Part shown: positions 28,452 through 64,000 of the stretch, in pieces | Numbering within the stretch: the stretch's first letter is position 1 | Layout of the letters: each line of letters starts with the position of its first letter | Assembly (NCBI GenBank): GCA_951812955.1 | Contig: OX638340.1 | Location: 576,001 to 640,000, forward strand | Length of the DNA: 64,000 nt | Origin: an uncultured Gemmatimonadota bacterium | GTDB lineage: Bacteria > JAAXHH01 | Direction of reading: 5' to 3' | Notes under the pieces: generated by a model | Database searches by the model: none | The model's input: only the letters and a program-made list of their open reading frames with translations | Told to the model about the DNA's origin: nothing | Made by a program: the position numbers and the translations under genes

Positions 28452-30788
28452 ATGGTAATGGAGTTTGGCAATATCCTTACCGCTTACTTCGATTTCATCT
28501 GGATGTCGTTCCTGCTTCTGGGTCCGATGTTGATGCTGGGTCTGCTGCTTTCGGGCCTGATCCACGTTTTCATCTCCCGGGAAGCGATACTCAGATGGCT
28601 TCAGGACGACAGCCTTCGCTCGGTCTCAATCAGTTCCGCCGTAGGCGTTCCGGTACCGCTCTGCAGCTGTTCCGTCGTTCCCGTAGTTGCCGAAATGCGA
28701 CGAAAGGGGGCTTCCCGCTCATCCTGCATGGCCTTCCTGATTACGGCGCCTGAAACCGGGGCCGACTCCATCCTCGTCACGAACGCTTTTTTCGGCTTCA
28801 TCGCCGCCGTTGTGCGACCTGTCATCAGTTTTATCACAGCCGTCGTGGCGGGTATTTTCTGCATCGGCCTGATCCGGGACGATAGTGGCGAGGCCAAGCC
28901 GGAGGAGGAAGACCACGGACACGCCCACCACGACCATGACCACGGTCACGACCATGGACATGACCACGATCATGACCACGATCACTCGGTCCACGATCCG
29001 CTGCTGTCGGACAAGGATGACTGCTATGTAAGCCCCTCCGCCATGAAGATCCTCATGACGAAGTGGATCAAGGGGTTGACTACCGTGGCGTCCACCTGGA
29101 GGTTCGGATCGTGGATCAAACCGGAATTCTACCGGGAGATCATCGGAGAGCAACCGGCGAAATCCGCGAATCGGACCGAACTGGATGAGGTGGAAGAAAA
29201 ATACCCCGGGCTCGATTTCAAGAAGATCGTCAAGCATATCTTCCACTACGGCTTTGTCGAGATCGCCGATGATATACTCTTCGCGCTGCTCGTCGGTATC
29301 GCGCTGGGCGGCGTGCTGTTCCTGGTCATACCGGCCGACCTGATGTCCAACGAATACGCACGCTGGCTTTCCTACCCCGTAATGATCATCGTCGGCGTGC
29401 CCCTTTACATCTGCGCCTCCGCCAGCACGCCGATTGCCGCCGCGCTGGTCGCCCGGGGCGTCAGTCCAGGGGCCGCCCTGATATTCCTGATGACAGGCCC
29501 CGCGACCAACACAAGCACCATCGCCATCATCATGAGTCAGTTCGGCGCGCGTTTCGCGGCCGTATACGTCACGTCAGTCATCGCGGTCACCGCGGTGATC
29601 GGCATAGCCATCGATTTCATACTGGTGGCCACCGGGTTTGCCATTTCCGTCAACCTGTTGCCTTCCGATTCCCCCACGCTTCAAATTCTGCAGTGGGGCG
29701 GCGCGCTCGGGCTGATCGCGCTTATCGTCTGGAGGTACCGCGCCGGCGCCATGCGCAGCGGTTACGAAGACCTCATGCTCAACATCCGACCCTTCTCCCG
29801 GCCATGGCGGAACACGTGGAAGCGGCTGACCCGTGACCGGTCGTTCCGGGGTACGATTTCACCCACCACACCCATGGGCATGATGCTGTGGGGCTTGCTG
29901 CTGGTCCTCTTTCTTGGCAGCGGGTTCACGGCCGTGCCGCCGGGTCACGTCGGATACGGCCGGTTGTTCGGCGAGGTATACTGGAAAGACCTTCAGCCCG
30001 GGCTTCATTACCTGGCGCCGCGCCCCCTCGTCCAGGTCGACAAGTGGCCAGTCAGGGAAGTAAAATCAATTATGTCCGAGACACCGTACGAGTACGTGTC
30101 GGGCGACCTGAACATGCTCACGCTCACCCTGGACGTCCAGTACCGGGTAAACGACCCGTACACGTATCACTACCGTACGGTCGATCCGGAAGAGATCATC
30201 GAAGACGCGGTGCGCGAGCACGTTCGTACTTTTGTCAACGCACGTGACCTGGATCGGCTCCTCACTGCATACCGGGCGGAACTGGAAGATGAGCTGACGA
30301 ATCTCTTCGTGACGGATGCCCGGATGCACGGCGACAAGTCGGTGCTTGGCACCGTCGACCTCGTGAAGGTCAGCCTGCTGAACGTCACCCCGGCGGCGGA
30401 AGCCCTGAGTTCCTTCCGGGAGATTTCAAGCGCCCAGGAAGACAGGGAAAGAATCATCGTCAACGCGCAACGGTTCATGGTGTCCCTGGTGCCGCGCGCT
30501 CACGGCAATGCCGAGTATGAGAAAGAACAGGCCGATGGAGAGGCATTTCGCAAGGTGGCGACCTCCGCGGCGGAAGCGGATGCCATTATGGTCATTTCTT
30601 CTGCCATGCAGACGGCGCCGGAAGTCCTGCGGAACATGCTGTGGCGGGAAAAGTTGGAATCCGCTCTCGCCGGCAATCCCAAGATTATCGTGCCCAACAG
30701 ACAGAGTTTCAACAAGGTCGCGATCTGGAAAAAGAGGCCGGCGGAAGCCGCCGCCCCATCCGCCAAGACAGGAGGTAAAGGCAAATGA
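28452..30788 (+). CDS. fusion protein: DUF318/ArsP-like, His-rich metal permease (N, ~460 aa) :: HflK-like SPFH/band-7 domain (C, ~320 aa)
   Basis: GGGAGG RBS. N-terminus has at least 8 TM helices, 'VPVPLCSCSVVPV' (like the ArsP 'TPFCSCS' motif) and a cytoplasmic 'HGHAHHDHDHGHDHGHDHDHDHDH' tract. From about residue 455 there is one TM ('MGMMLWGLLLVLFLG') followed by the band-7 core 'VPPGHVGYGRLFGEVY...'. Confidence 0.7.
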   Translation: MVMEFGNILTAYFDFIWMSFLLLGPMLMLGLLLSGLIHVFISREAILRWLQDDSLRSVSISSAVGVPVPLCSCSVVPVVAEMRRKGASRSSCMAFLITAPETGADSILVTNAFFGFIAAVVRPVISFITAVVAGIFCIGLIRDDSGEAKPEEEDHGHAHHDHDHGHDHGHDHDHDHDHSVHDPLLSDKDDCYVSPSAMKILMTKWIKGLTTVASTWRFGSWIKPEFYREIIGEQPAKSANRTELDEVEEKYPGLDFKKIVKHIFHYGFVEIADDILFALLVGIALGGVLFLVIPADLMSNEYARWLSYPVMIIVGVPLYICASASTPIAAALVARGVSPGAALIFLMTGPATNTSTIAIIMSQFGARFAAVYVTSVIAVTAVIGIAIDFILVATGFAISVNLLPSDSPTLQILQWGGALGLIALIVWRYRAGAMRSGYEDLMLNIRPFSRPWRNTWKRLTRDRSFRGTISPTTPMGMMLWGLLLVLFLGSGFTAVPPGHVGYGRLFGEVYWKDLQPGLHYLAPRPLVQVDKWPVREVKSIMSETPYEYVSGDLNMLTLTLDVQYRVNDPYTYHYRTVDPEEIIEDAVREHVRTFVNARDLDRLLTAYRAELEDELTNLFVTDARMHGDKSVLGTVDLVKVSLLNVTPAAEALSSFREISSAQEDRERIIVNAQRFMVSLVPRAHGNAEYEKEQADGEAFRKVATSAAEADAIMVISSAMQTAPEVLRNMLWREKLESALAGNPKIIVPNRQSFNKVAIWKKRPAEAAAPSAKTGGKGK
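28915..28990 (+). repeat. low-complexity CAC/GAC codon repeat encoding the His/Asp/Gly tract of the permease
   Basis: Visible run 'cacgacggacacgcccaccacgaccatgaccacggtcacgaccatggacatgaccacgatcatgaccacgatcac' within the CDS. Confidence 0.8.
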
Positions 30789-49434: not shown

Positions 49435-50868
49435 TTAGCCTACGCTGCCTTCCAAGCTGATCCCCAGCAGCTTCTTCGCCTCCACGGCGAATTCCATGGG
49501 CAGTTCCTGAAACACTTCCTTGCAGAACCCGTTGATAATCATGGAAATGGCGTCTTCCGTGGATATGCCCCGGGTCTTGCAGTAGAATAACTGGTCTTCG
49601 CTGATCCGCGCCGTAGACGCTTCGTGTTCCACGCTCGCGGTGTTATTGCCCACGTCGATATAGGGGAAGGTGTGGGCACCGCAGCGGTCGCCGATGAGCA
49701 TCGAATCGCACTGGGTATAGTTCTTGGCTCCATCGGCCTTCTTCAGTACCTGGATCCGGCCCCGGTATACGTTCTGGCCGTTTCCGGCGGATATCCCTTT
49801 CGATACCACCGTGCTGCGCGTGTCCTTTCCCACGTGGATCATCTTGGTTCCCGTATCGGCCACCTGCTTGTTGCGGGTCAGCGCCACGGAATAGAACTCG
49901 CCGATCGAATGGTCGCCCTGCAGGATCACGCTGGGGTACTTCCAGGTGATGGCGGACCCCGTTTCCACCTGCGTCCAGGAGATCTTGGCGTTGTCCCCCT
50001 TGCAGATTCCGCGCTTGGTCACGAAGTTGTATACGCCGCCCTTTCCCTCTTCATTGCCGGGATACCAGTTCTGCACCGTGGAGTACTTGATCTGGGCGTC
50101 CTTCAGCGCAACCAGTTCCACGACGGCCGCGTGCAGTTGATTCTCGTCGCGCATCGGCGCGGTACAACCCTCGAGGTAGCTGACGTAGGAGCCCTCGTCG
50201 GCAATGATCAGCGTACGCTCGAATTGTCCCGTTCCGGCCGTGTTGATCCGGAAATAGGTGGACAGTTCCATGGGACACCGTACGCCGGGAGGGATGTAGC
50301 AGAAGGAACCGTCGCTGAAGACGGCCGAGTTCAGCGATGCAAAGTAGTTGTCCCTGTAGGGCACCACGGTACCCAGGTACTTCTCCACCAGGTCGGGATG
50401 TTCCTGCGCCGCTTCCGAGAAGGAACAGAAGATGATGCCCAGTTCTGCCAGCTTGTCCTTGAAGGTCGTGTGGACCGACACGCTGTCGAAAACCGCGTCC
50501 ACGGCCACGCCCGCTAGCATCTTCTGTTCCTCCAGCGGTATACCGAGCTTGTTGTAGGTTTCCAGCAGCTCGGGATCCACCTCGTCAAGGCTGTTGAATT
50601 CCGGCGTGTTCTTCGGCGCGGCGTAATAGACGATGTTCTGGTAATCGACCGGCGGATAGGCCATGTACTGCCAGTTGGGCTCCTTCATCTTGAGCCAGTG
50701 GCGATACGCCTTCAGACGCCATTCCAGCAGGAACCCGGGCTCATTCTTCTTTGCGGATATGAACCGGACTATATCCTCGTTGAGTCCCGGCGGCGCCGTT
50801 TCCATCTCGATATCGGTAACCCAGCCTTCTTTGTATTCCTGTTGGGCCAGGGTCTCAATGGCTTCCAT
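49435..50868 (-). CDS. sufB: Fe-S cluster assembly scaffold SufB
   Basis: 477 aa with '[21 protein letters not shown]' and '...[26 protein letters not shown]'. AAGGAG RBS. Confidence 0.9.
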
Positions 50869-50901
50869 TTTCTCTCCTTGAAACGAATGTAACCCGCCGC
50901 G

Positions 50902-51420
50902 CTAGCGGCCTATCTTGATCGTACTGCCCATCGCCTGGTCCCGCGAGGTATCCTGGGAGACCTGCTCCACCACCTCGAGTACCTGGAATTCCGTCTGCAG
51001 CAGGTCCGACAGGGATATGTGATCGAGCACACCGGACAGGTACCGGGCCAGCACCGTCCAGACGGGACGGATGGCGCATGCGTTCAGGTGCGTGCACGCT
51101 TCCAGGTGACCGGAGAAATGTTCGCACATGTGGCTGTCCGGGCTGGTGAGCACAACCCCGTCTTCCGAACTCAGGGCGCGCATGACTTCGCCCAGCGAAA
51201 TGGTGTGCGGTTCCTTCTCCAGTGCGTAGCCACCCCTGATACCCCTTACGCTTCGTACAAGACCTGACCGCCTGAGGATCATCAGCAGTTTCGAGACGTA
51301 GTCCAGGGAAATGCCTTCCGATTCTGCGATTTGACGGCCCGTGACCGGGTCACGGGAATGGTGCCGTGCCAGCTGCAGAATGCAACGAAGGCCATATTCT
51401 TCCTGGGCGGTCACTTTCAT
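50902..51420 (-). CDS. Rrf2-family transcriptional regulator (IscR/SufR-like, Cys-containing)
   Basis: wHTH 'YGLRCILQLARH...GRQIAESEGISLDYVSKLLMILRRSGLV'. Three Cys ('CEHFSGHLEACTHLNAC') could ligate a cluster. GAGGAG RBS. First gene of the suf operon. Confidence 0.8.
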   Translation of the reverse strand: MKVTAQEEYGLRCILQLARHHSRDPVTGRQIAESEGISLDYVSKLLMILRRSGLVRSVRGIRGGYALEKEPHTISLGEVMRALSSEDGVVLTSPDSHMCEHFSGHLEACTHLNACAIRPVWTVLARYLSGVLDHISLSDLLQTEFQVLEVVEQVSQDTSRDQAMGSTIKIGR

Positions 51421-51675
51421 GCCTTTGTCTCCTCTTTCCGTTCAATTTGCCTAACTGAATATAGCAAACCGGACTTTTATGTCAAGTATTAAATCCGCAG
51501 CAGTCGGCTGGGTATCCCGTGCGTGATTTGCCTGTAACGTGTGACGACGAAGCCGGATCTGCAACGGCATGCGGAATGACCTGTTCTATCTCCTTGACAT
51601 GGGGGACATCAGAAGTTACCGTCGATCCCAATCCACTTTAATCCCACTAAGCTACTAAAAGGACATTCTCATCAA

Positions 51676-52758
51676 ATGCCCAAGAAACTGGATGTACGCA
51701 TGATACCCGGCACCCGTTCCGTCGACGCGCTGACTGGCGAAGGCTATTTCCCTGTCATCACCTGTCTGGGTGGCAATGAACTGCTCCTGGCCTACCGGGC
51801 CGGCGCAGCGCACATGGGCCTGGGCGGCCGGCTGGACGTGAGACGGTCGGTCGACGGGGGCCTTAACTGGACTGCGCCTGTGACCGTGGCCGACAGCGAA
51901 AGGGACGACCGTAACCCCGCGCTGGGTCTGGCGCCGGACGGTACGCTTGTACTGGCCTATCACTGGCAGGGGTCCTACGATGACGAAGGCGCATGGAAAC
52001 TGGAATTGGGCAGGGCCGATACTCGGGTCGTATTCTCCGAGGATGGCGGCCATACCTGGACCGGTGACGAGCTCATCGATTTCACTCCGATCAACGGCGC
52101 CTCGCCCTTCGGCAAGATCTTCACGGTAGACGGCGTCATGCACATGCTGATCTATGGCGGTTCGCCCTGCTGCGAGGCCGGATCTGGAACGGTCAGGGTC
52201 GGGCCGGCTTCGACGCCGACGTACATCCTCAGATCCAGGGACAACGGGCGATCCTGGGGGGATCCCACGCTGGTCGCACTGGGACTCAACGAATCGGACG
52301 CAGCCATCCTACCCGACGGCCGCTGGCTCTTCGTCGCCCGTTCCGAGGACCGCGCCGAACAGGCGCTTTATGCCTGCGTTTCTGAGGACGGCGGGTACAC
52401 ATGGCGCAACGTGGGACGGGTCACGGACGCAAAGGAACATCCGCCGGACATCACCCTGATGTCCAACGGATGGCTGCTGCTGCTCTTCGGGCGACGGCAT
52501 CCTCCCTTCGGCGTGGAGGGCCTGATCAGCCGGGACGGCGGGATGACCTGGGATGATCGAAGACTGGTTCTGGACGACTCCCTGCCCGGCGGCGACATCG
52601 GTTATCCCTCCACTGCCCGCCTCGAAGACGGTCGTCTGGTTACCGCCTATTACACCGCGGGAACAGCGGAGAGAAAGTGGGAGATGTTCCGTGCCGCAGA
52701 CGTAGCATGCAAGGTCGTGTCTTACGACGAGTCCAGCCTTATTGATCACTGGAGCTAA
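51676..52758 (+). CDS. BNR-repeat (sialidase-like beta-propeller) protein, no signal peptide
   Basis: Five Asp-box motifs: 'SVDGGLNWT', 'SEDGGHTWT', 'SRDNGRSWG', 'SEDGGYTWR' and 'SRDGGMTWD'. Confidence 0.7.
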   Translation: MPKKLDVRMIPGTRSVDALTGEGYFPVITCLGGNELLLAYRAGAAHMGLGGRLDVRRSVDGGLNWTAPVTVADSERDDRNPALGLAPDGTLVLAYHWQGSYDDEGAWKLELGRADTRVVFSEDGGHTWTGDELIDFTPINGASPFGKIFTVDGVMHMLIYGGSPCCEAGSGTVRVGPASTPTYILRSRDNGRSWGDPTLVALGLNESDAAILPDGRWLFVARSEDRAEQALYACVSEDGGYTWRNVGRVTDAKEHPPDITLMSNGWLLLLFGRRHPPFGVEGLISRDGGMTWDDRRLVLDDSLPGGDIGYPSTARLEDGRLVTAYYTAGTAERKWEMFRAADVACKVVSYDESSLIDHWS

Positions 52759-52806
52759 ATATCGTAATGCGCTGTCCAAGAGCAGGTTACGTATCAGGAA
52801 CCTTGT

Positions 52807-53937
52807 GTGAGACTCGTTGATTCCGGTGAAATCCGCGACGGCCGTGCCATCCCGGATCACCGCAGGAACTGCGCCTTCACCACCATCAACAGGCTGAACG
52901 ACGGCACGATCCTCGTTTCAGGCCGGTGGGGAACGGCGCGGGATTCGGTGGACGGGCACGCCTGCATCTGGGCCACGTCGGACACCGGCCGTACCTGGCG
53001 CCTTCGATATGACGGAAACGGGAAGGGGACTTGGGACGGAACAGCGGGTGAAGTCAAGGGACTGACGAGTACGGAGCTGTCCCCAGGCACGCTCACGGCG
53101 ACGGCCCTGTGGGTCGACCGTTCCAATCCGGATCTTCCTTTCATCCATCCGGAAACGCAGGGCCTGCTGCCCATGCGCATCATGCACGTCGACTCGGGGG
53201 ACGGTGGCCGCACATGGGGTCCGCCGCGCCGAATGGACACAACGCCCCACCTCGCCGCTTCCCCCTGTTCACACCATATCATCCGGTTGTCCGGCGGTAC
53301 CCTTGTCCAGCCCTACGAACAGTGGAAGGAATACGGGGACACGTCGCCGGGCCGGCCCGCCGCGAGGCTGCGGTTATCACGGGACGGTGGGCGTAGCTGG
53401 CCGGATTTCGTCACCGTGGCCCGGCATCCGGACAACAAGCTCGCCTACTGGGACCAGCGGCTGGCTGTCCATCCCGTTGACGGCCGCCTGGCCGCCACCT
53501 TCTGGACCCACGATTTCGATGCGGGCGTCGACATCGACATCCATATCGCCTACGGGTCGCCGGACGGCCGTGCGTGGACGATCCCCCGCGGCACCGGACT
53601 TCCCGGCCAGCACTGCCAGCCCCTCGCCCTTGGTGGGGATCGCCTGCTGGCCGCTTATCCGCGACGCGGGGATCCTCCCGGCATCGTGCTTTCCATCAGC
53701 GAGGATTTCGGCGAAAGCTGGGACCGGAGCCGGGATCTCCTAGTCTACGACAGCATCGCCGGCAATGAGTCCGGATCCCGCGGCAGCCGTACGCAGTCCG
53801 AATTGTGGGGTGACATGGAGCGCTGGCGCTTCGGACATCCCCGGATGGTGCGATTGCCGGACGACGAGGTGTTCGTCGTCTACTACGCGGGAGATGATGC
53901 CGTCAAGACCGCGCGGTGGGCGAGGGTCCGCGTTTAG
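52807..53937 (+). CDS. BNR-repeat (sialidase-like) protein, paralog, no signal peptide
   Basis: GTG start. Asp-boxes 'SDTGRTWR', 'SGDGGRTWG', 'SRDGGRSWP', 'SPDGRAWT' and 'SEDFGESWD'. Confidence 0.7.
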   Translation: MRLVDSGEIRDGRAIPDHRRNCAFTTINRLNDGTILVSGRWGTARDSVDGHACIWATSDTGRTWRLRYDGNGKGTWDGTAGEVKGLTSTELSPGTLTATALWVDRSNPDLPFIHPETQGLLPMRIMHVDSGDGGRTWGPPRRMDTTPHLAASPCSHHIIRLSGGTLVQPYEQWKEYGDTSPGRPAARLRLSRDGGRSWPDFVTVARHPDNKLAYWDQRLAVHPVDGRLAATFWTHDFDAGVDIDIHIAYGSPDGRAWTIPRGTGLPGQHCQPLALGGDRLLAAYPRRGDPPGIVLSISEDFGESWDRSRDLLVYDSIAGNESGSRGSRTQSELWGDMERWRFGHPRMVRLPDDEVFVVYYAGDDAVKTARWARVRV

Positions 53938-54072
53938 CCCGGCTTCGACACTGTCTGCAGGGCAGTGCCGCTGAGGATACGGTCCGACGATCAGTGCAGC
54001 GCCTGGGGTGAACGACTCTGGCTCAGCCTCGCACATCCCGCCAGAGCCGCGCTTGCGGCGTTCGATCCGGGC

Positions 54073-55263
54073 TCAGCCCCTCACATCCCGCCAGGGACGA
54101 ACCATAATCCGCTCGAAACCTGCCGGATCGATGTCCACGCCGAGTCCCGGGCCCGGTGGTACCGCCACGCAGCCGTCCTCATCCAACACAAAAGGCTCGG
54201 CGAAATAACCCTTGCCGATGAACGTCCGCCCATCCTCGCGCCAGCAATTCACTTCATTGTGTTCCTGGACCAGGAAGTTCGACGCGCAGGCGTCGATCTG
54301 AATGGATGCGGCGAGGGCCAGCGGGCTTAAGGGGCAGTGCAGGGCGAGTTTCGCATAGGCGCTTTCACCCATCACCGCGATCTTGTGACACTCGGTGATG
54401 CCGCCGGCGTGGCACAGGTCCGGCTGCATCACGGACAGGGCGTTCTTGCGCAGGGCGTCGTAGAAGATCCACTTGCCCATCCAACGTTCGCCGGCTGCGA
54501 TAGGGATTTCGCTGTTGCGCGCGATGTCCGCGAGCACGTCGACCCGTTCCACGGGCATGGGTTCCTCGATGAACAGGGGCCGGTGCGGCGTCAGGGCCGA
54601 TATCATCTGTTTGGCCATCACGGGGTGTGGATTATGGATATCCACGGCCACTTCCACATCGGGCCCGGCGCCCCTGCGCACGGCGGCGAAGGCTTCGGCG
54701 ATCCGCTCCACCTCCGAGGTGGGTTCCAGTCCGGTGCCCATGCCCACGTGCAGCTTCATGCACCGGAAGCCCCACTCCTCGACAATGACCCTGGCCGCCT
54801 CCTCATGCGCCCCGGGAAAATCCACGTCCGGGTCATACGAAGGATGATAACCCGCGTCGTAGGGCTGCCCGGGTTCCACGTACCAGGGCAGTTGTCCCCC
54901 CACAGCGCGGTACATGCGTATCCGGTCGCGGCAGGCTCCGCCAAGCATGGCATGGACCGGAAGCCCTGCGGCTTTGCCGGCAAGGTCCCAGAGCGCCATG
55001 TCGATTCCGCTGATCGCGCTCATCTTCACCGGTCCGCCGACATATCCCGAACCGCCCTCGTACATGGTATGCCAGAGCGACTCGACGCGGCAGGGGTCTT
55101 TCCCGACAAGCAACGGCTCCAGGCGCCGCACCTCGGCGATGACGCTTTCCGGGTGGTTTTCCAGGTAGGGTTCGCCCCAGCCGAACAGTTCGGTGTCCGT
55201 GTGGATCTTCAGCCATACCCAACTCGGCGGAACGCGCAGGATTTCGAAGTGAGTGATTCGCAT
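54073..55263 (-). CDS. enolase-superfamily dehydratase (D-galactonate/mandelate-racemase-like, DgoD-type)
   Basis: 'MRITHFEILRVPPSWVWLKIHTDTELFGWGEP' is the typical DgoD N-terminus. 'KLHVGMG' and 'EEP' metal-ligand regions. Confidence 0.8.
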   Translation of the reverse strand: MRITHFEILRVPPSWVWLKIHTDTELFGWGEPYLENHPESVIAEVRRLEPLLVGKDPCRVESLWHTMYEGGSGYVGGPVKMSAISGIDMALWDLAGKAAGLPVHAMLGGACRDRIRMYRAVGGQLPWYVEPGQPYDAGYHPSYDPDVDFPGAHEEAARVIVEEWGFRCMKLHVGMGTGLEPTSEVERIAEAFAAVRRGAGPDVEVAVDIHNPHPVMAKQMISALTPHRPLFIEEPMPVERVDVLADIARNSEIPIAAGERWMGKWIFYDALRKNALSVMQPDLCHAGGITECHKIAVMGESAYAKLALHCPLSPLALAASIQIDACASNFLVQEHNEVNCWREDGRTFIGKGYFAEPFVLDEDGCVAVPPGPGLGVDIDPAGFERIMVRPWRDVRG

Positions 55264-55340
55264 GCTCGGCTTTGCTCCCTGTTCTTGATGGCATCATGTT
55301 CTGACGGTATCACAAATCGTGCAATGGCCAGGACGCCTAC

Positions 55341-56318
55341 CTATCGGCCATAGACCGTCTGGATCATCGCACGGATGTAGCCGTTCGCGTAGGCCTTGCC
55401 TGCCGGACCAGCCATTGATTGGGGGAAGCCCGGTGTGTGGTCCATGCCGAAGGGGCCGCTGTACCCGTTATCGCGGTAGGTTTCCATGGCCCGGCGCATA
55501 TCCACTTCGCCCTCGTCGATGAAAACCTCCGCGAACCTCGGCAGCCGGCCTCTGACGTTCCGGAAATGGACCAGGGCGATCTTTTTCCGGGAGGCCATCT
55601 CGGCGATGATATGGTAGACGTCCTGTGGACCCGCCAGTTCGGTCATGCAACCCTGGCAGAAGAGCATCCTGTGATATGCGCTGGGTACCGCGTCGAAAAT
55701 CCGGCGGAAATGCTCCACCGTGGAGCAGATCTGCGCGACGCCGCCCAGAGGCTCCGGTATGGGCGGGTCGTCCGGGTGGAGCGCCAGGTTTACCCCGGCC
55801 TTTTCGGCCGCCGGGACCGCGGCGCGCATGAAGGCGACCATGTTGTCCCACATCACCTCGGCCGAGACGGGCGGCTCGTGGGGCTGCGGGCGGCTCCGGT
55901 CGAATTCGGCATAATCGAAGGTACTGTACACCGCGCCGCCGCGGCCGATGTCGGAAATGGTGCGGAAGTTGCCCATGGGCTTGAAATTCCAGGCCAGGGT
56001 CGGTATCCCTGCCTTGCCCAGGCATTCGATAAGCCGGACGAAAGCGCCCAGTTCTTCGTCCCGTTCCGCCGTGGCCAGCGTGATCCCCTCCAGGACCGGC
56101 ATGAAGACGGTCTGCAGTTTCAGCCCATGGGACTCGGTCTTTTCCCGGGCCTGTTCGAAAAGCTCGGTACTGTCTTTGCCCGCACGAACGTGCCGTTCCG
56201 CTTCGACCTTCCCTCCGGTCCTCAGGTCCAGCTGGATCATGTCCACGCTGATCGCGCGATAGAAACTAAGGGTCTCGTCGTTGAAATCGGACCAGTTTAC
56301 GACATCATGCAGGTACAT
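55341..56318 (-). CDS. uxuA: mannonate dehydratase (UxuA family)
   Basis: 325-aa xylose-isomerase-like TIM barrel. Overall UxuA-like layout. Adjacent to the DgoD-like dehydratase and HpcH aldolase. The N-terminus is less certain. Confidence 0.65.
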   Translation of the reverse strand: MYLHDVVNWSDFNDETLSFYRAISVDMIQLDLRTGGKVEAERHVRAGKDSTELFEQAREKTESHGLKLQTVFMPVLEGITLATAERDEELGAFVRLIECLGKAGIPTLAWNFKPMGNFRTISDIGRGGAVYSTFDYAEFDRSRPQPHEPPVSAEVMWDNMVAFMRAAVPAAEKAGVNLALHPDDPPIPEPLGGVAQICSTVEHFRRIFDAVPSAYHRMLFCQGCMTELAGPQDVYHIIAEMASRKKIALVHFRNVRGRLPRFAEVFIDEGEVDMRRAMETYRDNGYSGPFGMDHTPGFPQSMAGPAGKAYANGYIRAMIQTVYGR

Positions 56319-56381
56319 CGATCGCCTCCAATGCTGGCGCTACGGGTTGGACGACTTCCGCTTCGACCTGACCTACGGGAT

Positions 56382-56427
56382 GGTGATCTGGTGATCTGGT
56401 GATCTGGTGATCTGGTGATCTGGTGAT
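56382..56427. repeat. perfect 8-bp tandem repeat (GGTGATCT) x about 5.7
   Basis: Read directly: 'ggtgatctggtgatctggtgatctggtgatctggtgatctggtgata'. Starts 64 bp upstream of the uxuA start codon, in the uxuA/HpcH divergent intergenic region. Confidence 0.95.
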
Positions 56428-56531
56428 AAGATAACCCCCCGGGCCAGTGCAGCAATTCGAAAATCGATCAGACACCACGTATATCCATATTGGGCTAACG
56501 CAAAGCGGAATCATGTATTATAATCGGTAGT

Positions 56532-56615
56532 CCGGCGCACCCGTAGGCATAGCGCATCCATAGGCTAAGCGCATCCGTAGACTGAGCGCATCCGTAAGCC
56601 GGCGCATCCGAATAT
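56532..56615. promoter_or_regulatory. about five imperfect tandem copies of a 17-bp unit (consensus AGCGCATCCGTAGRCTR)
   Basis: 'ccggcgcacccgtaggcat agcgcatccataggcta agcgcatccgtagactg agcgcatccgtaagccg gcgcatccgaatatcg'. Lies between uxuA (minus) and the HpcH aldolase (plus). Candidate iterated regulator binding sites. Confidence 0.6.
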
Positions 56616-56687
56616 CGCGTACGGAAACACGGAGTCAATCCCATCCCATTTCAATCTCGGCAGGCAAACGACACAGGAGCCCTTCCA

Positions 56688-57413
56688 ATGGCGGAACGCA
56701 ACTTGAAACAGCGCATCGGCGCGGGAGAACAGGTCATCGGCGCTAACGTCGGCATGTCCCATACAAGGGAACAGCTTAAAAAGGTAGTAGAGTCAGGTGA
56801 GTACGACTTTCTCTGGGTAGACGGACAGCACAGCGCTTTCAGCGAAGACTCCCTGGTGGAATTCTGCGACAGGGCCGATGCGCTGGATGCCGACGTCATG
56901 TTCCGCATCAAGCACACGTTTCACAGCTACCTGGTCGGTAACCTGCTCGACCTTGGGCCCGCCGGGATCGAAGTGCCCCAGGTCGAATTGGAATCAACGG
57001 TGGATGAGGCGGTCGACTTCTTCTACTATCCTCAGCAGGGCATGCGGAGCTGGGGAGGCGGAGCGCGGCGTAAAGTGGATGAACAGGGCGGCGACCGGCT
57101 GGGCTATGCCGAGTGGTGGAACAACTACGGCGTGCTGATGATGCAGCTTGAATCGATACCCGCGGTGACAGGTGCGCGGAGACTGGCCAAAGCGGGGGTA
57201 GACTGCCTGTCCTTCGGTCCAAACGATCTCATGTACAGTATCGAGGCCCATCCGCACCATCCGTTCCGCGACGTGGACGATTGCGTTCGCCACGTGGTCG
57301 AACAGCTCGCCGGTTCCGGTACGAGGGTGTGTTTCCGGAACCACCCGGCCAGCATGCGGCAGCGGTACGTTGACATGGGTGTAACGGTGTTTCTGGAGAG
57401 TCCGTCGCTGTAG
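56688..57413 (+). CDS. HpcH/HpaI-family 2-keto-3-deoxy-acid aldolase
   Basis: 241 aa. 'GANVGMSHTREQLKK...DFLWVDGQHS' and '...GVDCLSFGPNDL' are HpcH/citrate-lyase-beta-like motifs. AGGAG RBS. Confidence 0.75.
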   Translation: MAERNLKQRIGAGEQVIGANVGMSHTREQLKKVVESGEYDFLWVDGQHSAFSEDSLVEFCDRADALDADVMFRIKHTFHSYLVGNLLDLGPAGIEVPQVELESTVDEAVDFFYYPQQGMRSWGGGARRKVDEQGGDRLGYAEWWNNYGVLMMQLESIPAVTGARRLAKAGVDCLSFGPNDLMYSIEAHPHHPFRDVDDCVRHVVEQLAGSGTRVCFRNHPASMRQRYVDMGVTVFLESPSL

Positions 57414-57486
57414 AGGCTGCCGCCAGATAGAATTTGCCGATGCCGGCGGAGTTTTTCCCATTGCGGACGCGGTCCCCACGAATCTG

Positions 57487-59316
57487 TTATGCGCCGGGAC
57501 GCCCTCCGGCAATGTCGGATTTCGCATCGAAATCCAAAGACTGAGCCTCGTACATCTTCGCGAATAGACCACCCTGTTCTACCAGTTCCTTCGGCGTACC
57601 CGATTCGGCCAGTCGGCCCTCACTGATAACCAGGATGCGATCCGCGTGCCGGATCGTCGAGAGTCTGTGGGCGATGACCATGATGGTTCGGCCGGTCCTT
57701 GCCCGTTCGACGGCGATTCGGATCTCTTCTTCGGCCAGTGCATCCAGGGCCGAAGTGGCCTCGTCAAGCACGAGAATACAGGTCGAGGTCCGCATGAGCG
57801 CACGGGCCATGGCGATGCGTTGCTTTTCACCACCGGATAGCAGGATACCGTCTTCTCCCGCCTCGGTAGCGTACCCTTCCGGCAGATTCTCAACGAATTC
57901 GTGCAGTGCGGAAGAACGCGCGGCTCGCTCCACCGCCTCAATTTCATAGTCCGCAACGGGGTAAGCGATGTTGTCGGCAAGCGAAGCGTTCCACATGAAA
58001 ACATCCTGGGGCACGACGGCGATTCGCGACCTGAGAGAGGCCAGCGTCATCTCGCGTACATCCGTTCCGCCAATGGAAATGCTTCCGCTTTCTGGTTCCT
58101 GCATACGGGTCAGCAGGTCGATGATCGTGGTCTTCCCGCCGCCGCTCGGCCCCACGATGCCGACGAACTCACCCCCGTTGACCGTGAAGGAGAGATCTTT
58201 CACCTCGTATCCCCGTTCATAACTGAACCAAATGTCGGAAAACTCGATAGTCGGAGGCGTGATGTCGATCCGTTCCACCGGGCGTCCACGGCCGAATCCT
58301 TCCTCAGCGGGAAGCGCGAATAATCCGTCCAGGCTCTTCACGGAGACGTCGATGAGTTTTGTGCCGGTATAGGTCGCAATTACGGACCGCAACGCGGCGG
58401 AGGCTCTCGGCGTATAGGCCATGACGGCCACGAGACTGCCGATGGTGATATCACCGGCCATGGCCTGGAAAGCGCCATATCCGAGGAGGACGCCCAGGAC
58501 CAGTCCGCTGATCACTTCGTTCGGAAAGTTGAGCACGATATCGTGGAGGGCCGCACCACGCATCTTAACCCGGGCGTGTTTTTCTAATAGCCCCCCACAT
58601 CGCTTCCTGGTATGCGTTTCCCCATTGAACAGGCGTATCGTACGAAACGCGCCGACCATCTCGTAGAGGAAGCTCTCGACGGCCTTGCTCTGTTCGTTCG
58701 AACGGCGGTCCATTTCCTTCGAGTACCTGGACAGGAACCGGGTGGCCAGGTACGTCGCCGGCATCGCGACACAGAAAATCACCGCGAGTTCGACATTTAG
58801 CAGGAACACCATGATCAGCGTCCCCGCCAGCATGATCGAGCTTGTAAAGACGGGGAGCAGTTCCTGCGCGATGTACATCTCGCCGATCCGGCCGGTATCC
58901 CGCGTAACGCGAAAGACGATGTTCCCCCTGGGGATCTTTTCCAGGGCGTCCAGCCTGACATGCAGAAGGTGGTTCAGGACCGCCTTGCGCAGGGCAAGGG
59001 TAACCGACGCACCGATGCGGACCCGCAGATGTCCCTGTACGTAGGAGAAAGCGATCGCCACCAGCGGCGTGGCGACCATGGCCACCAGCAGTCTCCACGC
59101 CAGTGTTGTATCCGACTCCGGGATCGCCGTGTCGAAGAGCATTTTGAAGAACAGGGGCTGGATCAGCATGACCGCTGATCCAGCGAGCATCATGATAACC
59201 GCGGCGCCAATAGTATACTTATGTTGATACAGCGTCTGCCGAACGACTTTGGCGGCATGTGCCACCGGTTCTTTGTTCCTGTGGACTCGATTGGCTTTCC
59301 GATCGTCTGATGGCAT
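57487..59316 (-). CDS. ABC exporter, fused permease-ATPase (MsbA/type-I exporter fold)
   Basis: 6 TM, then NBD with 'GPSGGGKTT', 'LSGGEKQRIAMARAL' and 'ILVLDEATSALD'. Confidence 0.85.
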   Translation of the reverse strand: MPSDDRKANRVHRNKEPVAHAAKVVRQTLYQHKYTIGAAVIMMLAGSAVMLIQPLFFKMLFDTAIPESDTTLAWRLLVAMVATPLVAIAFSYVQGHLRVRIGASVTLALRKAVLNHLLHVRLDALEKIPRGNIVFRVTRDTGRIGEMYIAQELLPVFTSSIMLAGTLIMVFLLNVELAVIFCVAMPATYLATRFLSRYSKEMDRRSNEQSKAVESFLYEMVGAFRTIRLFNGETHTRKRCGGLLEKHARVKMRGAALHDIVLNFPNEVISGLVLGVLLGYGAFQAMAGDITIGSLVAVMAYTPRASAALRSVIATYTGTKLIDVSVKSLDGLFALPAEEGFGRGRPVERIDITPPTIEFSDIWFSYERGYEVKDLSFTVNGGEFVGIVGPSGGGKTTIIDLLTRMQEPESGSISIGGTDVREMTLASLRSRIAVVPQDVFMWNASLADNIAYPVADYEIEAVERAARSSALHEFVENLPEGYATEAGEDGILLSGGEKQRIAMARALMRTSTCILVLDEATSALDALAEEEIRIAVERARTGRTIMVIAHRLSTIRHADRILVISEGRLAESGTPKELVEQGGLFAKMYEAQSLDFDAKSDIAGGRPGA

Positions 59317-59470
59317 GCCCTCGCTCTCCTATGGTCGTCGATTCTCACCAGTAGAGTACGAAATCGTACACGGACAGGGATCGTTCCGGCAGATTCCACA
59401 AAAAGGCAAAGCCCCCGGCGGCATTTACCACCGGGGGCCTGGATCTGCATACCTCTGGAGCGACCTGCGT

Positions 59471-60742
59471 CTATCCCTGCCCCGATCCGCCGAGGACGTC
59501 TTCCAACTCGTTCACGAACACCTCGAGTTCGTCCGGCTTCCCGATGGTTACCCGCAGGTGATTGCTCAGGAGATTGATCTCCCTCGTCCGGTACCCGGAA
59601 CCGCCCCGTACCATCACGCCGCGTTCCATAAGCGCGGAGCCCATGCGGCGGCTGTCCCGCTTGACGTCCACGATCATGTAATTGCCGTGGCTCGGTGTGT
59701 ATGCCAGTCCCAGACGGTCGAATTCGGCGGACAGGTAGTCCTTGCCGTCGCTCACGACCTCTTTCGTACGGGCTACGAATTCGTGATCGTCCAGGGCCGC
59801 GAGGGCCGCGTGCATGCCCAGGGTGCTCAGTCCGCCGCCGAAGAACCCCATGTGCGCCATCAGCATATCCATCATGCGCTGGCTGCCGATCGCGTACCCG
59901 ATTCGCATGCCGGCCAAGCCGTAGATCTTGGAAAAAGTACGGGCGACGACCACATTGTCTCGCTCCAGGGCGAGTTTCGCGGCATCCCGGTAGTCCGGAT
60001 CCCGGACGAAGTGGATGTAGGCCTCGTCGATGAGGACGATGGCCTGCGCTGGCGCCGCGTCTACGAGGGACACCAGGTCCTCGTAGGGCACGATCGTTCC
60101 CGTGGGATTGTTGGGATTGGTGACGACGATCAGGGATGTTCTTGGAGTGATTGCCGCCTTCATGGCGTCGAGGTCGTGAACGAAGTCAGCCGTCGTGGGA
60201 ACGCGGACGGTACTGACGTCCTTGCCCATCATCTGATAGGTTTGAAAACCACGCGCGACCGATCCATAACCCGGGACCGCCTCGATGCACTCCCCGCCAT
60301 TGCTCGCGGCTATTACGGCCAGCGCCTGTAGTATCGGACCGGAACCAGGCGTGACCATTACCCGGTTCAACTCCCTGAAACGCATGAATGACCGCATGTC
60401 GCTAAAGCTCAGTTCGAAATCCTCGACACCCGGAACGCCGTGTAATTTGTTGAGACGAACGGGCAGATCGACACCGAAATCGTACCGGTTGATCTTGTGC
60501 AGGTTTTCGGCAATGGCCGCAACGGCGCGTGGCGAAGCGCCCAGGGGATTCTCGTTGGCTCCAATCTGGACCCGGCCCGGTTCCACGCCGTATCCGCGGA
60601 CGTCGCCGGCCTTCTTACCGGTCGCCATGGCCTGCGCGATCTCCCAGGCCGAACCTGAGGCGAGGGCGCCGGCACCCAGCAGGGCGCCTTTCATGAATCG
60701 ACGCCGCGTAAACCCGTTTTTTAATACACTCCCGAAACCCAT
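59471..60742 (-). CDS. Tat-signal-peptide-bearing class-II PLP aminotransferase (HisC/histidinol-phosphate-aminotransferase-like)
   Basis: N-terminus 'GFTRRRFMKGALLGAGALASGSAWEIAQA' has a twin-arginine motif, an h-region and AxA. 'GANENPLG', 'TNPNNPTG' and 'SKIYGLAGMRIGY' (PLP-Lys box). GGAGG RBS at start 'MGFGS'. Confidence 0.8.
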   Translation of the reverse strand: MGFGSVLKNGFTRRRFMKGALLGAGALASGSAWEIAQAMATGKKAGDVRGYGVEPGRVQIGANENPLGASPRAVAAIAENLHKINRYDFGVDLPVRLNKLHGVPGVEDFELSFSDMRSFMRFRELNRVMVTPGSGPILQALAVIAASNGGECIEAVPGYGSVARGFQTYQMMGKDVSTVRVPTTADFVHDLDAMKAAITPRTSLIVVTNPNNPTGTIVPYEDLVSLVDAAPAQAIVLIDEAYIHFVRDPDYRDAAKLALERDNVVVARTFSKIYGLAGMRIGYAIGSQRMMDMLMAHMGFFGGGLSTLGMHAALAALDDHEFVARTKEVVSDGKDYLSAEFDRLGLAYTPSHGNYMIVDVKRDSRRMGSALMERGVMVRGGSGYRTREINLLSNHLRVTIGKPDELEVFVNELEDVLGGSGQG

Positions 60743-60903
60743 GGTATGAACCTCCATTCAATGATTACTCGTAAATTGCATCGTATCTACAAAGTGTACA
60801 CCACCTAAGAGTCTGAACCTCCAACTAAAGATTGCCTGCGGATTTCCCACCATCCAAATGTGTAACGCCTGAATTCGAAACCTTATTTCGCTACCTTATT
60901 TCG

Positions 60904-62568
60904 TTACCTGATGTTGAGCCTTGCCATTTGCGTGACGATGTAGTCGGCGCAGCGGAACGCGAGCGCCTGTATGGTTAGCGTCGGGTTGCTCTTGCCGCTG
61001 GTGACGAAGGACGAACCGTCGACGATGAACAGGTTGTCCACGTCGTGGGCCTGGTTGAACTTGTTCACGACCGACGTCGCCGGATCGTTGCCCATTCGGC
61101 AAGTGCCCATGAGATGGGCGTCGCCATGGGGCACGAAATTCGGAGAGGCCACGATCCCATGGGCGCCGGCGGTGTCCAGCAGTTCGCGTGCGCGGTCCCG
61201 AAAGAAGTCGCCGAGTTTGTGCTCGTTCGGATGCACGTTGTACGTCACACGCGGTACCGGCAGGCCCCACTTGTCGTTTACGTCCGGGTCCAGGTCGATC
61301 ATGTTGGATTCCTGGGACATGGACTGCATGCTGGTAAGGGCGACCATGTACCGGGTGTAATTGTCCATGATCCATTTCTTGCGGCGGGCGCCCCACCTGC
61401 GGAGCCGGGGCATGTTCAGGTTGGCGAAGGAAATGGTTTCGCCGTCACCCCGCGGTTCCAGCACGCCTCCGCCGAAGAAACCGTACTTGTCCGGATCCGG
61501 GTCGTAGAAATCCTGGATAATGCGTGAATCCATGACGCCTTTGTACTCGTTGAGATCCTTTTCGTAGAATCCCCGGGCGGACTGGTAGTAGTTGAACATC
61601 AGGTGCCTTCCCACCTTGCCGCTGCTGTTGGCGAGGCCGTCCGGAAAGAGATTGGACTTCGACATGAGCAGCAGGCGCGGCGTATGGACGCCGTTACAGC
61701 AAACGATTACCGCGCGGGCTTCCAACCGGTGTTCACGCAGGTCTTTATCCAGATAGATCACTCCCTCGGCCCGGCCATCCTCGTCGACCACGATCTCCCG
61801 AACGCAGGCATCGGCCCGTATCTGGCAGTTGCCCGTCCTCAGCGCCTGGGGAATCATGGTAACCAGCATGCTGGACCGCGCGCCGATGGTACAGACGTAA
61901 CTTTCGCAGAAACCGCAATTCATGACCGGCGGCCGGCCTCCGTATTCCCGCGAGTTGATTGCCAGCGGCGCCGGATACGAGTGCCATCCCAGCTTCTGGG
62001 CGGCCATGTCTGCCAGGGCGCCCGAACTGGTTCGCGGCACCGGCGGCATGGGGTAGGGACGGCGTCGCGGCGGATCGAAGGGATTGGCGCCCGCCAGGCC
62101 GGATATCCCGACTTCGTATTCGGCCTTCTCGTAGTAATGTTCCAGGTCCCAGTAGTCGATGGGCCAGTCCTGCACGTCCGCGCCGTCCAGGTCGCCGAAA
62201 AGGCTTCTTTCCTTGAAATCGTTCTCGTGCAGCCGCCAGGAAATACCGGTGTAATGGAGCGTGCTGCCGCCCACCGTGCTTTGCATGTGAATCCCGTGAT
62301 CTTCAACGGCCTGATCGTCCGACGACTGCCGGTACGTATTGGGCTGATCGTGGCGATAGATGTTGGGATGGTCATGGTTATTGCTGGCGGGATGCATCGC
62401 CTGGAGTTCGTCCTGGTCGAAGTGGCGCGTCTTTTGAAATGATCCCATTTCCATGGCGACCACCTGCAGGCCCTTCGTGCTCAGTTCCTTGGCCATGACC
62501 GCGCCGGCGGCGCCTGTGCCGATGACGATGACGTCCGGTCGTCGAATCGTGGGATTGGGCAGGGACAT
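60904..62568 (-). CDS. GMC-family FAD-dependent oxidoreductase (no signal peptide)
   Basis: '[18 protein letters not shown]' FAD Rossmann at the N-terminus. Length and C-terminal region are GMC-like. Confidence 0.85.
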
Positions 62569-62581
62569 GGGGACTCCGAAA

Positions 62582-63262
62582 CTACGCTTCGCCGACGATT
62601 CTACTCTTCATCGGACCGTCATATGGCTTCCATTCGGGGTATTCGATCTCCGGAATGGTCATGTCGAATTCACTGAAAGGGGGATCGTAGCCAAAAGCCG
62701 CGCGACCTGGAAATCGGATCAGCTTCCATCCGGTCTCGCGATAGTTTCCGCCATAGGAGGGATCACTGAACATGCCCTCCATGGTATGCGTGACCAGCAT
62801 GCGCAGGAAATCCCTGGCGCCCATGGGGGCGTCGTCCGGCCAGTTCCGCGGGGACCTTGCACGGTCGATACCCATCAGGGCCCTGCGCTGATTTCTTGTA
62901 TCGAGATCCAGGAAGCCGGCTTCGTGCGAGAGCTGACAGTACCGGTCGAAAGCGGCCAGGCCGGAGACATAGGACTCCTTGTATTCGGCCCGGTGGCTGC
63001 CGAGGGCCCGGTCGATGTATACGATCACGCGGGCTTCCGCCGCACCGGGGTCGTTGTCGTCGGACGGCATGATCATCCGGGTCAGCGCGTCCACGGTACG
63101 GCCCTGGCGGGCGTCCAGGTTCTGCCAGGTGTATTCGAAGGGAGGTGTTTCCTGGGCGTCGATCGCACCGGTACGGGACAGCACGCCAAGTGTTATCACT
63201 CCACCGGTCGCCCGTGCGGTATTGGAAAGAAACGATCGGCGGGAAAACGGCTTTGACGTCAT
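62582..63262 (-). CDS. gluconate-2-dehydrogenase-subunit-3-family protein with Tat signal (small partner subunit of the GMC enzyme)
   Basis: 'MTSKPFSRRSFLSNTARATGGVITLGVLS' Tat motif. GGGAG RBS. Directly upstream of, and co-oriented with, the GMC gene. Confidence 0.7.
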   Translation of the reverse strand: MTSKPFSRRSFLSNTARATGGVITLGVLSRTGAIDAQETPPFEYTWQNLDARQGRTVDALTRMIMPSDDNDPGAAEARVIVYIDRALGSHRAEYKESYVSGLAAFDRYCQLSHEAGFLDLDTRNQRRALMGIDRARSPRNWPDDAPMGARDFLRMLVTHTMEGMFSDPSYGGNYRETGWKLIRFPGRAAFGYDPPFSEFDMTIPEIEYPEWKPYDGPMKSRIVGEA

Positions 63263-63460
63263 GGATTCCAGGCTCCCGACTCTATAGTTTCCATCGTTCG
63301 AATGCACATCAGGACTGTATACACATATCGCGTTGATTTATTCAATCTATCCGCTTCGAAAATACGGTTGAAAACCGGGTTGACAATAGAATTCGGCAGG
63401 GTTCTGATCGCGCGGGCAAAGAGGTTGACGGCAATACCCGCGAATCTATATTCATAAAGC

Positions 63461-64000
63461 ATGAACATTCTGAAGCCGCAGGCCCTCAAACCAGGTGATA
63501 CAATCGGGATCGTCGCACCGGCCAGCCATTCCGCGCTCCCGAGCGCGCTGCTGAACGGCCGCCGTTCACTCGAAGCCCTCGGATTCCACACGGTGACCGC
63601 ACCGCACCTGGCGGACAGGCACGGTTTTCTGGCCGGCCGGGACGCCGACCGCCTGGCCGACCTGGAAGGCATGTTCACCGATCCAGATATCCATGGAATC
63701 GTTTGCCTTCGCGGCGGATACGGGTCCGTCCGCATGCTGCAGCGCATGGATTTCGATATCGTCCGCACCAACCCCAAGGTCTTCGTCGGATACAGCGACA
63801 TAACCGCCCTCCATGGGGCAATCCATCAACGTACCGGCCTGGTCACCTTTTGGGGTCCCATGGTTGCCTCGGATATGAGTCCGGGTTTCCACCCATACAA
63901 CCGGGATGCCTTCATGAAGGCGGTTACAGGAGCCGATTCCATAGGCAGCATCGTGCATCCCGAGGACATGCCTCCCGTGCAGACCATTCATGGCGGCATG
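63461..64000 (+). CDS. LD-carboxypeptidase (peptidase S66, LdcA-like), N-terminal part (3' end lies outside the window)
   Basis: 'LKPGDTIGIVAPAS' and 'VGYSDITALH' (Ser nucleophile box). The ORF is open to the window end. Confidence 0.7.
   Translation, partial: MNILKPQALKPGDTIGIVAPASHSALPSALLNGRRSLEALGFHTVTAPHLADRHGFLAGRDADRLADLEGMFTDPDIHGIVCLRGGYGSVRMLQRMDFDIVRTNPKVFVGYSDITALHGAIHQRTGLVTFWGPMVASDMSPGFHPYNRDAFMKAVTGADSIGSIVHPEDMPPVQTIHGGM

Follow-up and report, generated by a model that had tools for sequence, protein, structure and literature searches.

The window analysed here, a stretch of DNA of 64 kb, contains a divergent pair of genes whose 369-bp intergenic region, between a uxuA-like and an aldolase open reading frame, carries an octanucleotide tandem repeat. 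The genes and arrays at this locus are the following:

54073-55263, minus strand: enolase-superfamily galactonate-dehydratase-like gene (345 bits against an NCBIfam cut-off of 311)
55341-56318, minus strand: gene for a UxuA-like xylose-isomerase-type TIM-barrel protein of 325 aa, downstream of the 8-bp array
56325-56329, minus strand: GGAGG, Shine-Dalgarno sequence of the uxuA-like gene
56381-56427, no strand assigned: octanucleotide microsatellite with 5.9 perfect copies; the unit is GGTGATCT when read on the plus strand and AGATCACC in the direction of the uxuA-like gene
56535-56610, no strand assigned: second tandem array, about 4.5 imperfect copies of the 17-bp unit GCGCATCCGTAGGCTAA, in the putative aldolase leader
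56688-57413, plus strand: divergent HpcH/HpaI-family aldolase-like gene, 241 aa

The name uxuA, given to the gene in the initial annotation, holds only approximately. The Pfam UxuA model passed over the C-terminal half of the 325-aa protein alone, and the protein reached 117.7 bits with the NCBIfam mannonate-dehydratase model, against a cut-off of 191. The start codon, the ATG at 56318, was backed by the conserved GGAGG and by conserved N-terminal codons in 12 aligned sequences. The galactonate-dehydratase-like gene lies on the same strand, 77 nt downstream, and the two genes probably form one operon. The nearest relatives of the uxuA-like gene were found in uncultured genomes labelled Latescibacterota or Gemmatimonadota, some of them complete chromosomes of about 3.5-3.9 Mb, and many of the isolate names presumably correspond to those of sponge and coral metagenome studies.

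Positions 56381-56427 spell T(GGTGATCT)x5 GGTGAT, with the five full units at 56382-56421. Tandem Repeats Finder reported a period of 8, 5.9 copies, 100% matches and a score of 94, the highest among the tandem arrays of the window. The two-unit 16-mer gave five overlapping matches at up to two mismatches, against 0.03 expected from shuffles. The array lies 64 bp upstream of the uxuA-like ATG (minus strand) and contains five GATC sites spaced 8 bp. Its coordinates, copy number and distance from the gene had been described correctly in the initial annotation. With a short unit (within 1-9 nt), head-to-tail order and high identity, it belongs among the simple-sequence repeats. The accompanying remark that the rest of the window has no similar feature was not quite accurate, since the 17-bp array (81-85% matches, score 82-89 in Tandem Repeats Finder) lies in the same intergenic region, 108 bp away. 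A dispersed regulatory motif or REP-like element was considered and rejected: GGTGATCT occurs four times elsewhere in the 64 kb, where about two occurrences are expected, and matches to the 17-mer outside its array were at chance level. GATC as such is not avoided in the window, which holds 530 sites against about 232 expected from base composition. A further array, with a period of 6/12/18 (ACCACGATCATG, 4.8 copies, score 74), lies at 28927-28985 inside a predicted coding region and is probably a repetitive peptide segment.

The exact UxuA-like protein was present on two contigs, one of 3,813,436 bp and the shorter ptg002375l of ENA assembly ERZ18545484. Contig ptg002375l carries the same genes as the window, and its 8-bp array has 3.9 copies, as compared with 5.9 in the window. 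The alignment showed a gap of 16 bp, exactly two units, in the array of ptg002375l; the units are perfect and the flanks identical in both contigs. This gap was the sole indel over 13.7 kb aligned (window positions 50300-64000), and 27 mismatches were found over the same length, 3 of them in 13.2 kb and the other 24 at 63556-63991. The length variation among related strains that the initial annotation had proposed to look for was thus found, with 5.9 and 3.9 copies in near-identical contigs and at most 1.75 in sister species. A difference of whole units between identical flanks in close relatives is also a defining property of simple-sequence repeats. The copy-number difference among relatives supports slipped-strand hypermutability. 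The array thus changed by two units while about 2e-4 substitutions per site accumulated; its per-locus rate would be some 10^3-10^4 times the per-site substitution rate, an estimate from one event with a wide error. The array is therefore a real, fast-mutating slipped-strand microsatellite of a well-known kind.

The polymorphism was read from assembled long-read contigs, which provide two alleles of the expanded state. Tandem repeats are prone to indels in sequencing, and the difference could in principle be an artefact that arose during assembly or consensus calling of the long reads. We give this explanation next to no probability, given that the arrays of both contigs are made of perfect units and differ by exactly two whole ones, that the contigs are distinct haplotypes with linked single-nucleotide differences, and that an array of 47 bp is far below read length. 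Furthermore, the same position gives a clean series of 1, 1.75, 3.9 and 5.9 copies over independent assemblies. Additional strains were sought by exact-protein look-up with five proteins of the window, which returned ptg002375l alone or nothing, and by a metagenome DNA scan, which returned one locus only, belonging to the sister species.

Two other features of the comparison between the contigs were observed. The 24 clustered mismatches fall within 436 bp (63556-63991) inside a Peptidase_S66 (LD-carboxypeptidase-like) gene, and this cluster looks like a recombination tract between otherwise near-identical strains. Contig ptg002375l (184,469 bp) ends at about window position 50300, near or inside the open reading frame 49435-50868, which may mark a strain-variable or assembly-breaking point.

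The array was born recently. In sister lineages at about 94% nucleotide identity, the homologous position is occupied by ATCACCAGATCACC, equal to 1.75 units. This sequence was identical in six independent assemblies (L003/L088, L087, L090, L091, L028 and L083); therefore the low-copy state is stable and the variation is limited to the expanded state. L089 and L092, which encode the same UxuA-like protein as the 1.75-copy sister lineage, have AACTCCAGATCACC, that is, one unit plus one degenerate unit. In more distant orthologues the homologous sequence is non-repetitive, e.g. GACATCAGACCGCC. The series is a classical case of microsatellite birth, from 1 to 1.75 and on to 3.9 or 5.9 units. According to the mechanism proposed, point changes would have given rise to the proto-repeat ATCACCAGATCACC, with 1.75 copies, right where the leader of the uxuA-like/galactonate-dehydratase operon begins. 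The proto-repeat would then have passed the slippage threshold in the lineage of the window, and the array would now grow and shrink by whole 8-bp units through slipped-strand mispairing.

The position of the array relative to regulatory signals was assessed by aligning the divergent region across about 20 species, among them the orthologous loci L003-L022. The conserved elements of the window are the following:

56428-56433, minus strand: TATCTT, -10-like, adjoining the 8-bp array; invariant in about 20 species (TATTTT in two)
56450-56455, minus strand: TTGCTG, -35-like, 16 nt upstream of TATCTT; TTGC invariant
56452-56464, minus strand: conserved block ATTTTCGAATTGC, overlapping the -35-like element; kept in L022
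56485-56500, plus strand: conserved block CCATATTGGGCTAACG
56517-56524, plus strand: palindromic ATTATAAT, invariant, with TATAAT at 56519-56524

Read in the uxuA-like sense, the invariant blocks of the alignment are CGATTATAAT, CG(T/A)TAG.CCAAT.TGG, ATTT(T)CG..TTGC and (C)TATCTT. In all of the species, ATTATAAT and TATCTT are 91-93 bp apart, and the interval from TATCTT to the ATG varies through tandem insertions alone. The spacer between TTGC and TATCTT is constant in length and variable in sequence, which is the signature of a -35/-10 pair, and the pattern TTGCTG-16 nt-TATCTT (56455-56428, minus strand) occurs nowhere else in the window. It is the candidate promoter of the uxuA-like gene, a weak one with 7 of 12 positions by the E. 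coli consensus. For the aldolase gene, TATAAT within ATTATAAT is the putative -10 element, and the CCATATTGGGCTAACG block may represent an operator or the -35 region of the same promoter. A consensus promoter scan called neither of the two proposed promoters.

The assignment of these modules to the two genes was based on L022. This locus has a different upstream neighbour and, without the ATTATAAT and CCAAT blocks, keeps TTTTCGATTTGC...TATTTT alone; the uxuA-like gene was accordingly matched with that module and the aldolase gene with the TATAAT module. The ATTTTCGAATTGC block is likewise kept in L022 without the aldolase-side blocks, and so it belongs to the uxuA-like side. A sigma-54 promoter at TTGC was rejected on reading the sequence, as the GG element is absent at the -24 position. 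A riboswitch or structured leader was also discarded. Rfam at E ≤ 1 gave nothing relevant, the lone match being a snoRNA hit within the aldolase gene that is attributable to chance, and RNAalifold predicted 0 pairs for the core in 20 species. The absence of conserved structure in the core by RNAalifold argues for DNA signals. Taken as a whole, the conserved core at 56428-56524 probably consists of two back-to-back promoters plus an operator.

The 8-bp array starts at the base right after TATCTT, outside the constrained core of 91-93 bp. Reading of the roughly 63 nt from the array to the ATG revealed no TAnnnT or other -10-like hexamer. With the conserved -35/-10-like pair just on the promoter side and no hexamer on the array side, the array is most likely transcribed and would form the first nucleotides of the 5' leader of the uxuA-like mRNA, within the presumed promoter/UTR zone. 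The initial annotation had invoked a repeat between promoter elements, altering their spacing; this idea was not borne out, because the array lies downstream of the conserved pair. A change in copy number would therefore alter leader length and not promoter geometry. Each unit gained or lost would shift the length of the 5' UTR by 8 nt, and the -35/-10 spacing, the divergent core and the ribosome-binding site would stay untouched. Small open reading frames across the array start upstream of the proposed promoter and lack conservation, and the 16-bp difference between the alleles is not frame-preserving; a coding or leader-peptide frameshift switch was rejected on these grounds.

Within the shared regulatory region, the array is located 92-138 bp upstream of the invariant TATAAT (56519-56524), and a role for it as an upstream element, or an upstream spacer of variable length, of the divergent aldolase promoter is conceivable. 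Such a role appears extremely unlikely, because the array lies beyond the whole 91-93-bp core and the -35/-10 pair of the uxuA-like gene, and nothing conserved was found on its far side that a change in copy number would bring nearer to the aldolase promoter or move away from it.

The length of the uxuA-like leader was compared among the species. From TATCTT to the ATG there are 82-88 nt in most of them, and the distance is longer by independent tandem duplications in some lineages. In the lineage of the window, the 8-mer accounts for +16 and +32 nt. L012 has +27 nt from a 9-mer (3899-3934), with 4 copies of the homologous segment, beginning 3 nt after TATCTT. In L008 the increase is +32 nt, and the 32-bp unit takes in TATCTT itself (3878-3943). 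L015 and L016 have +22 and +66 nt, respectively, from a 22-mer (3879-3964 in L016), and L011 has about +18 nt in this leader (positions of L008, L012 and L016 are counted with the uxuA-like start at 4001). Arrays were also found in the aldolase-side leader. The 17-bp array begins a few bases past the putative aldolase start site and has 4.5 copies in the window and in ptg002375l, 5.4 in L003, 6.5 in L028 and L083, and 0-1 in L089 and L092. Elsewhere, independent arrays are built from a 25-mer in L004 and a 15-mer in L013. The units are thus of 8, 9, 22 and 32 bp on the uxuA-like side and of 15, 17 and 25 bp on the aldolase side.

In a rough census of 21 sources, four arrays scoring at least 50 were found in about 1.75 kb of uxuA-like leaders and four in aldolase leaders, whereas the remaining intergenic DNA, about 21 kb, held 8-11. 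The arrays of the uxuA-like leader, which arose independently in at least four lineages, amount to a modest enrichment of about 5-fold over this rough intergenic background, a figure resting on small and phylogenetically non-independent numbers. The enrichment could reflect relaxed constraint, slippage associated with the start site, or selection. The independent leader arrays could accordingly be a result of selection for variable leaders rather than of neutrality. In the strongest form of this idea, the leaders beside the conserved core would repeatedly gain arrays near the presumed start site, and the 8-mer of the window would be the most mutable of a set of selected leader-length rheostats; we regard this as improbable. 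In a variant reading, open-complex or transcription-driven slippage would generate arrays at start sites.

Arrays with a unit of 7 bp (AGAATTA, TCTCCAG) were also observed about 60-100 nt upstream of distant uxuA-like genes, namely in L055 (607-636), L072 (600-636) and L047 (604-642), positions being counted in a segment of 700 nt taken in front of the respective start codon. The neighbouring upstream gene of L055 and L072 runs in the same direction, and in the three loci the regulatory context is unlike that of the window and the conserved core is missing. Given this differing upstream context, the distant homologues (L047, L055, L072 and others) were left out of the phenomenon described here. 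Short intergenic arrays seem to be common in these symbiont genomes.

Leaders with 0.9 to 10.9 units were folded in silico (minimum free energy and partition function). The probability of being unpaired was 0.38 for the Shine-Dalgarno sequence and 0.32 for the AUG, the same for every copy number. Added units yielded weak GAUC-GAUC pairing at the 5' end alone; the minimum-free-energy folds also showed one ACCAG/CUGGU contact, and no long hairpin with a complementary arm of the type known from the Haemophilus hmw genes was predicted. Thermodynamic folding of this kind is blind to decay, RNase processing and protein binding. The 3' tail of 16S rRNA contains a GAUCACC segment, and AGAUCACC resembles it and might pair with GGAGGCGAUC, the extended ribosome-binding site. 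As a thermodynamic effect, such an anti-Shine-Dalgarno mimic was rejected, since accessibility was flat across copy numbers. The folding results suggest that copy number is nearly neutral for expression of the uxuA-like gene, and two further observations point in the same direction: the orthologous leader accommodates insertions of +18 to +66 nt in other species, and tandem arrays are a common feature of intergenic DNA elsewhere in this clade. We consider it probable, on balance, that the uxuA-like leader contains in this array a young and hypermutable octanucleotide microsatellite, whose effect on expression is nil or small, and graded rather than on/off.

The initial annotation had offered as an alternative that the repeat is an iterated half-site for a regulator. 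Either the 8-bp units or pairs of them could be bound, or the GATC sites could constitute a Dam-methylation-sensitive operator shortly after the start site, with occupancy set by copy number. The arrangement is suggestive, as the direct repeats adjoin the -10-like box, a frequent position for repressors, and the five GATC sites recur at 8-bp spacing. A comparable case is that of OxyR at agn43. However, most orthologous leaders have neither a direct repeat nor a GATC at this place, and the number of units is 1.75 in the sister species and one in L089 and L092. The motif is not dispersed in the window, given its four other occurrences against about two expected, and a period of 8 bp puts consecutive sites on different faces of the helix. 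The iterated-site proposal was therefore set aside as very unlikely.

The microsatellite reading invites comparison with known repeats in leaders and promoter regions. In Moraxella catarrhalis, the surface-protein gene uspA2 has a tetranucleotide AGAT repeat in its 5' UTR, which is needed for wild-type expression. Like it, the window array is a short, strain-variable repeat placed, in all likelihood, in a leader; its unit has 8 nt and its gene is metabolic. In Haemophilus influenzae, transcription of hmw1A/hmw2A includes their heptamer repeat, (ATCTTTC)n, within the 5' UTR, where it tunes expression (PMC12721329). The hmw arrays have 11 to 38 units and form a long hairpin with a G-rich arm, with RNase III cleavage, and expression was found by experiment to be inversely proportional to repeat length (PMC12721329; PMC2651432). 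Changes in repeat length there need transcription (PMC12721329). The window array shares with hmw a tandem unit of 7-8 nt, a position about 60-100 bp upstream of the start codon and a strain-variable number of copies, as well as transcription within the 5' UTR, which for the window array is a prediction. It differs in having 4-6 units, in the lack of a predicted complementary arm and in serving metabolic genes instead of adhesins.

Another octanucleotide of H. influenzae, (ATTATTTG)1-6, lies between the divergent genes cmkB and pdxS, and its function is unproven (PMC2651432). It resembles the window array in unit length, in its 1-6 copies among strains and in its place between divergent housekeeping or metabolic genes. 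Its sequence and organism are different, it lies 12 bp upstream of pdxS as compared with 64 bp here, and it comes from a cultured pathogen of which many strains have been sampled. The TAAA tract of Neisseria meningitidis nadA, also an intergenic repeat of variable length in the promoter region of one gene, separates repressor operators from the core promoter, being located upstream of the -35 element, and acts by setting the spacing of the distal promoter elements (PMC2791445). In contrast, the window array lies downstream of the putative -10 element, and on its far side conservation is limited to the ribosome-binding site.

Since the transcribed repeat of hmw1A tunes expression, location in the 5' UTR does not imply that a repeat is without effect. 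The array could thus be a contingency or rheostat locus at which copy number acts on mRNA stability, processing or translation and in this way tunes expression of the operon, as in hmw1A. Several observations are consistent with this possibility, which we nevertheless regard as doubtful. Copy number differs between near-identical strains, and the array lies in the presumed 5' UTR directly at the start site. GATC being self-complementary, added units would add weak 5'-terminal stems of about -1.5 to -2 kcal/mol each. Independent arrays recur in the orthologous leader (L008, L012 and L015/L016) and in the aldolase leader, and there is precedent in transcribed or intergenic repeats of 7-8 nt with a known or suspected effect on expression (PMC12721329; PMC2651432). 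On the other hand, the predicted accessibility of the ribosome-binding site is constant over copy numbers, nothing like the long complementary arm provided by the hmw G-rich region was predicted, and the genes are metabolic, whereas surface or restriction-modification genes are typical of contingency loci. In other species the units have different lengths (9, 22 and 32 nt) and sequences, and intergenic DNA elsewhere in the clade often contains arrays too, which fits relaxed constraint. The alleles known are two. A regulatory role that is weak or absent is, on the evidence gathered here, more likely than a switch-like one.

As it stands, the array adds one case to the known microsatellites, next to those of Haemophilus hmw and cmkB/pdxS, and it offers a clean example of microsatellite birth together with a length marker that resolves strains. 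The comparison also produced a map of a conserved divergent promoter core in a sugar-acid gene cluster of a poorly known lineage. If the repeat tunes expression, it would provide a simple marker for strain dynamics inside hosts, and repeat-driven heritable heterogeneity would extend from the surface antigens of pathogens to the carbohydrate catabolism of an uncultivated symbiont of animals. A rheostat at this locus would mean heritable, reversible heterogeneity of sugar-acid catabolism within a symbiont population, and, if it acted through leader length, it would represent contingency-type regulation of metabolism in a non-pathogenic symbiont, diversifying co-resident cells.
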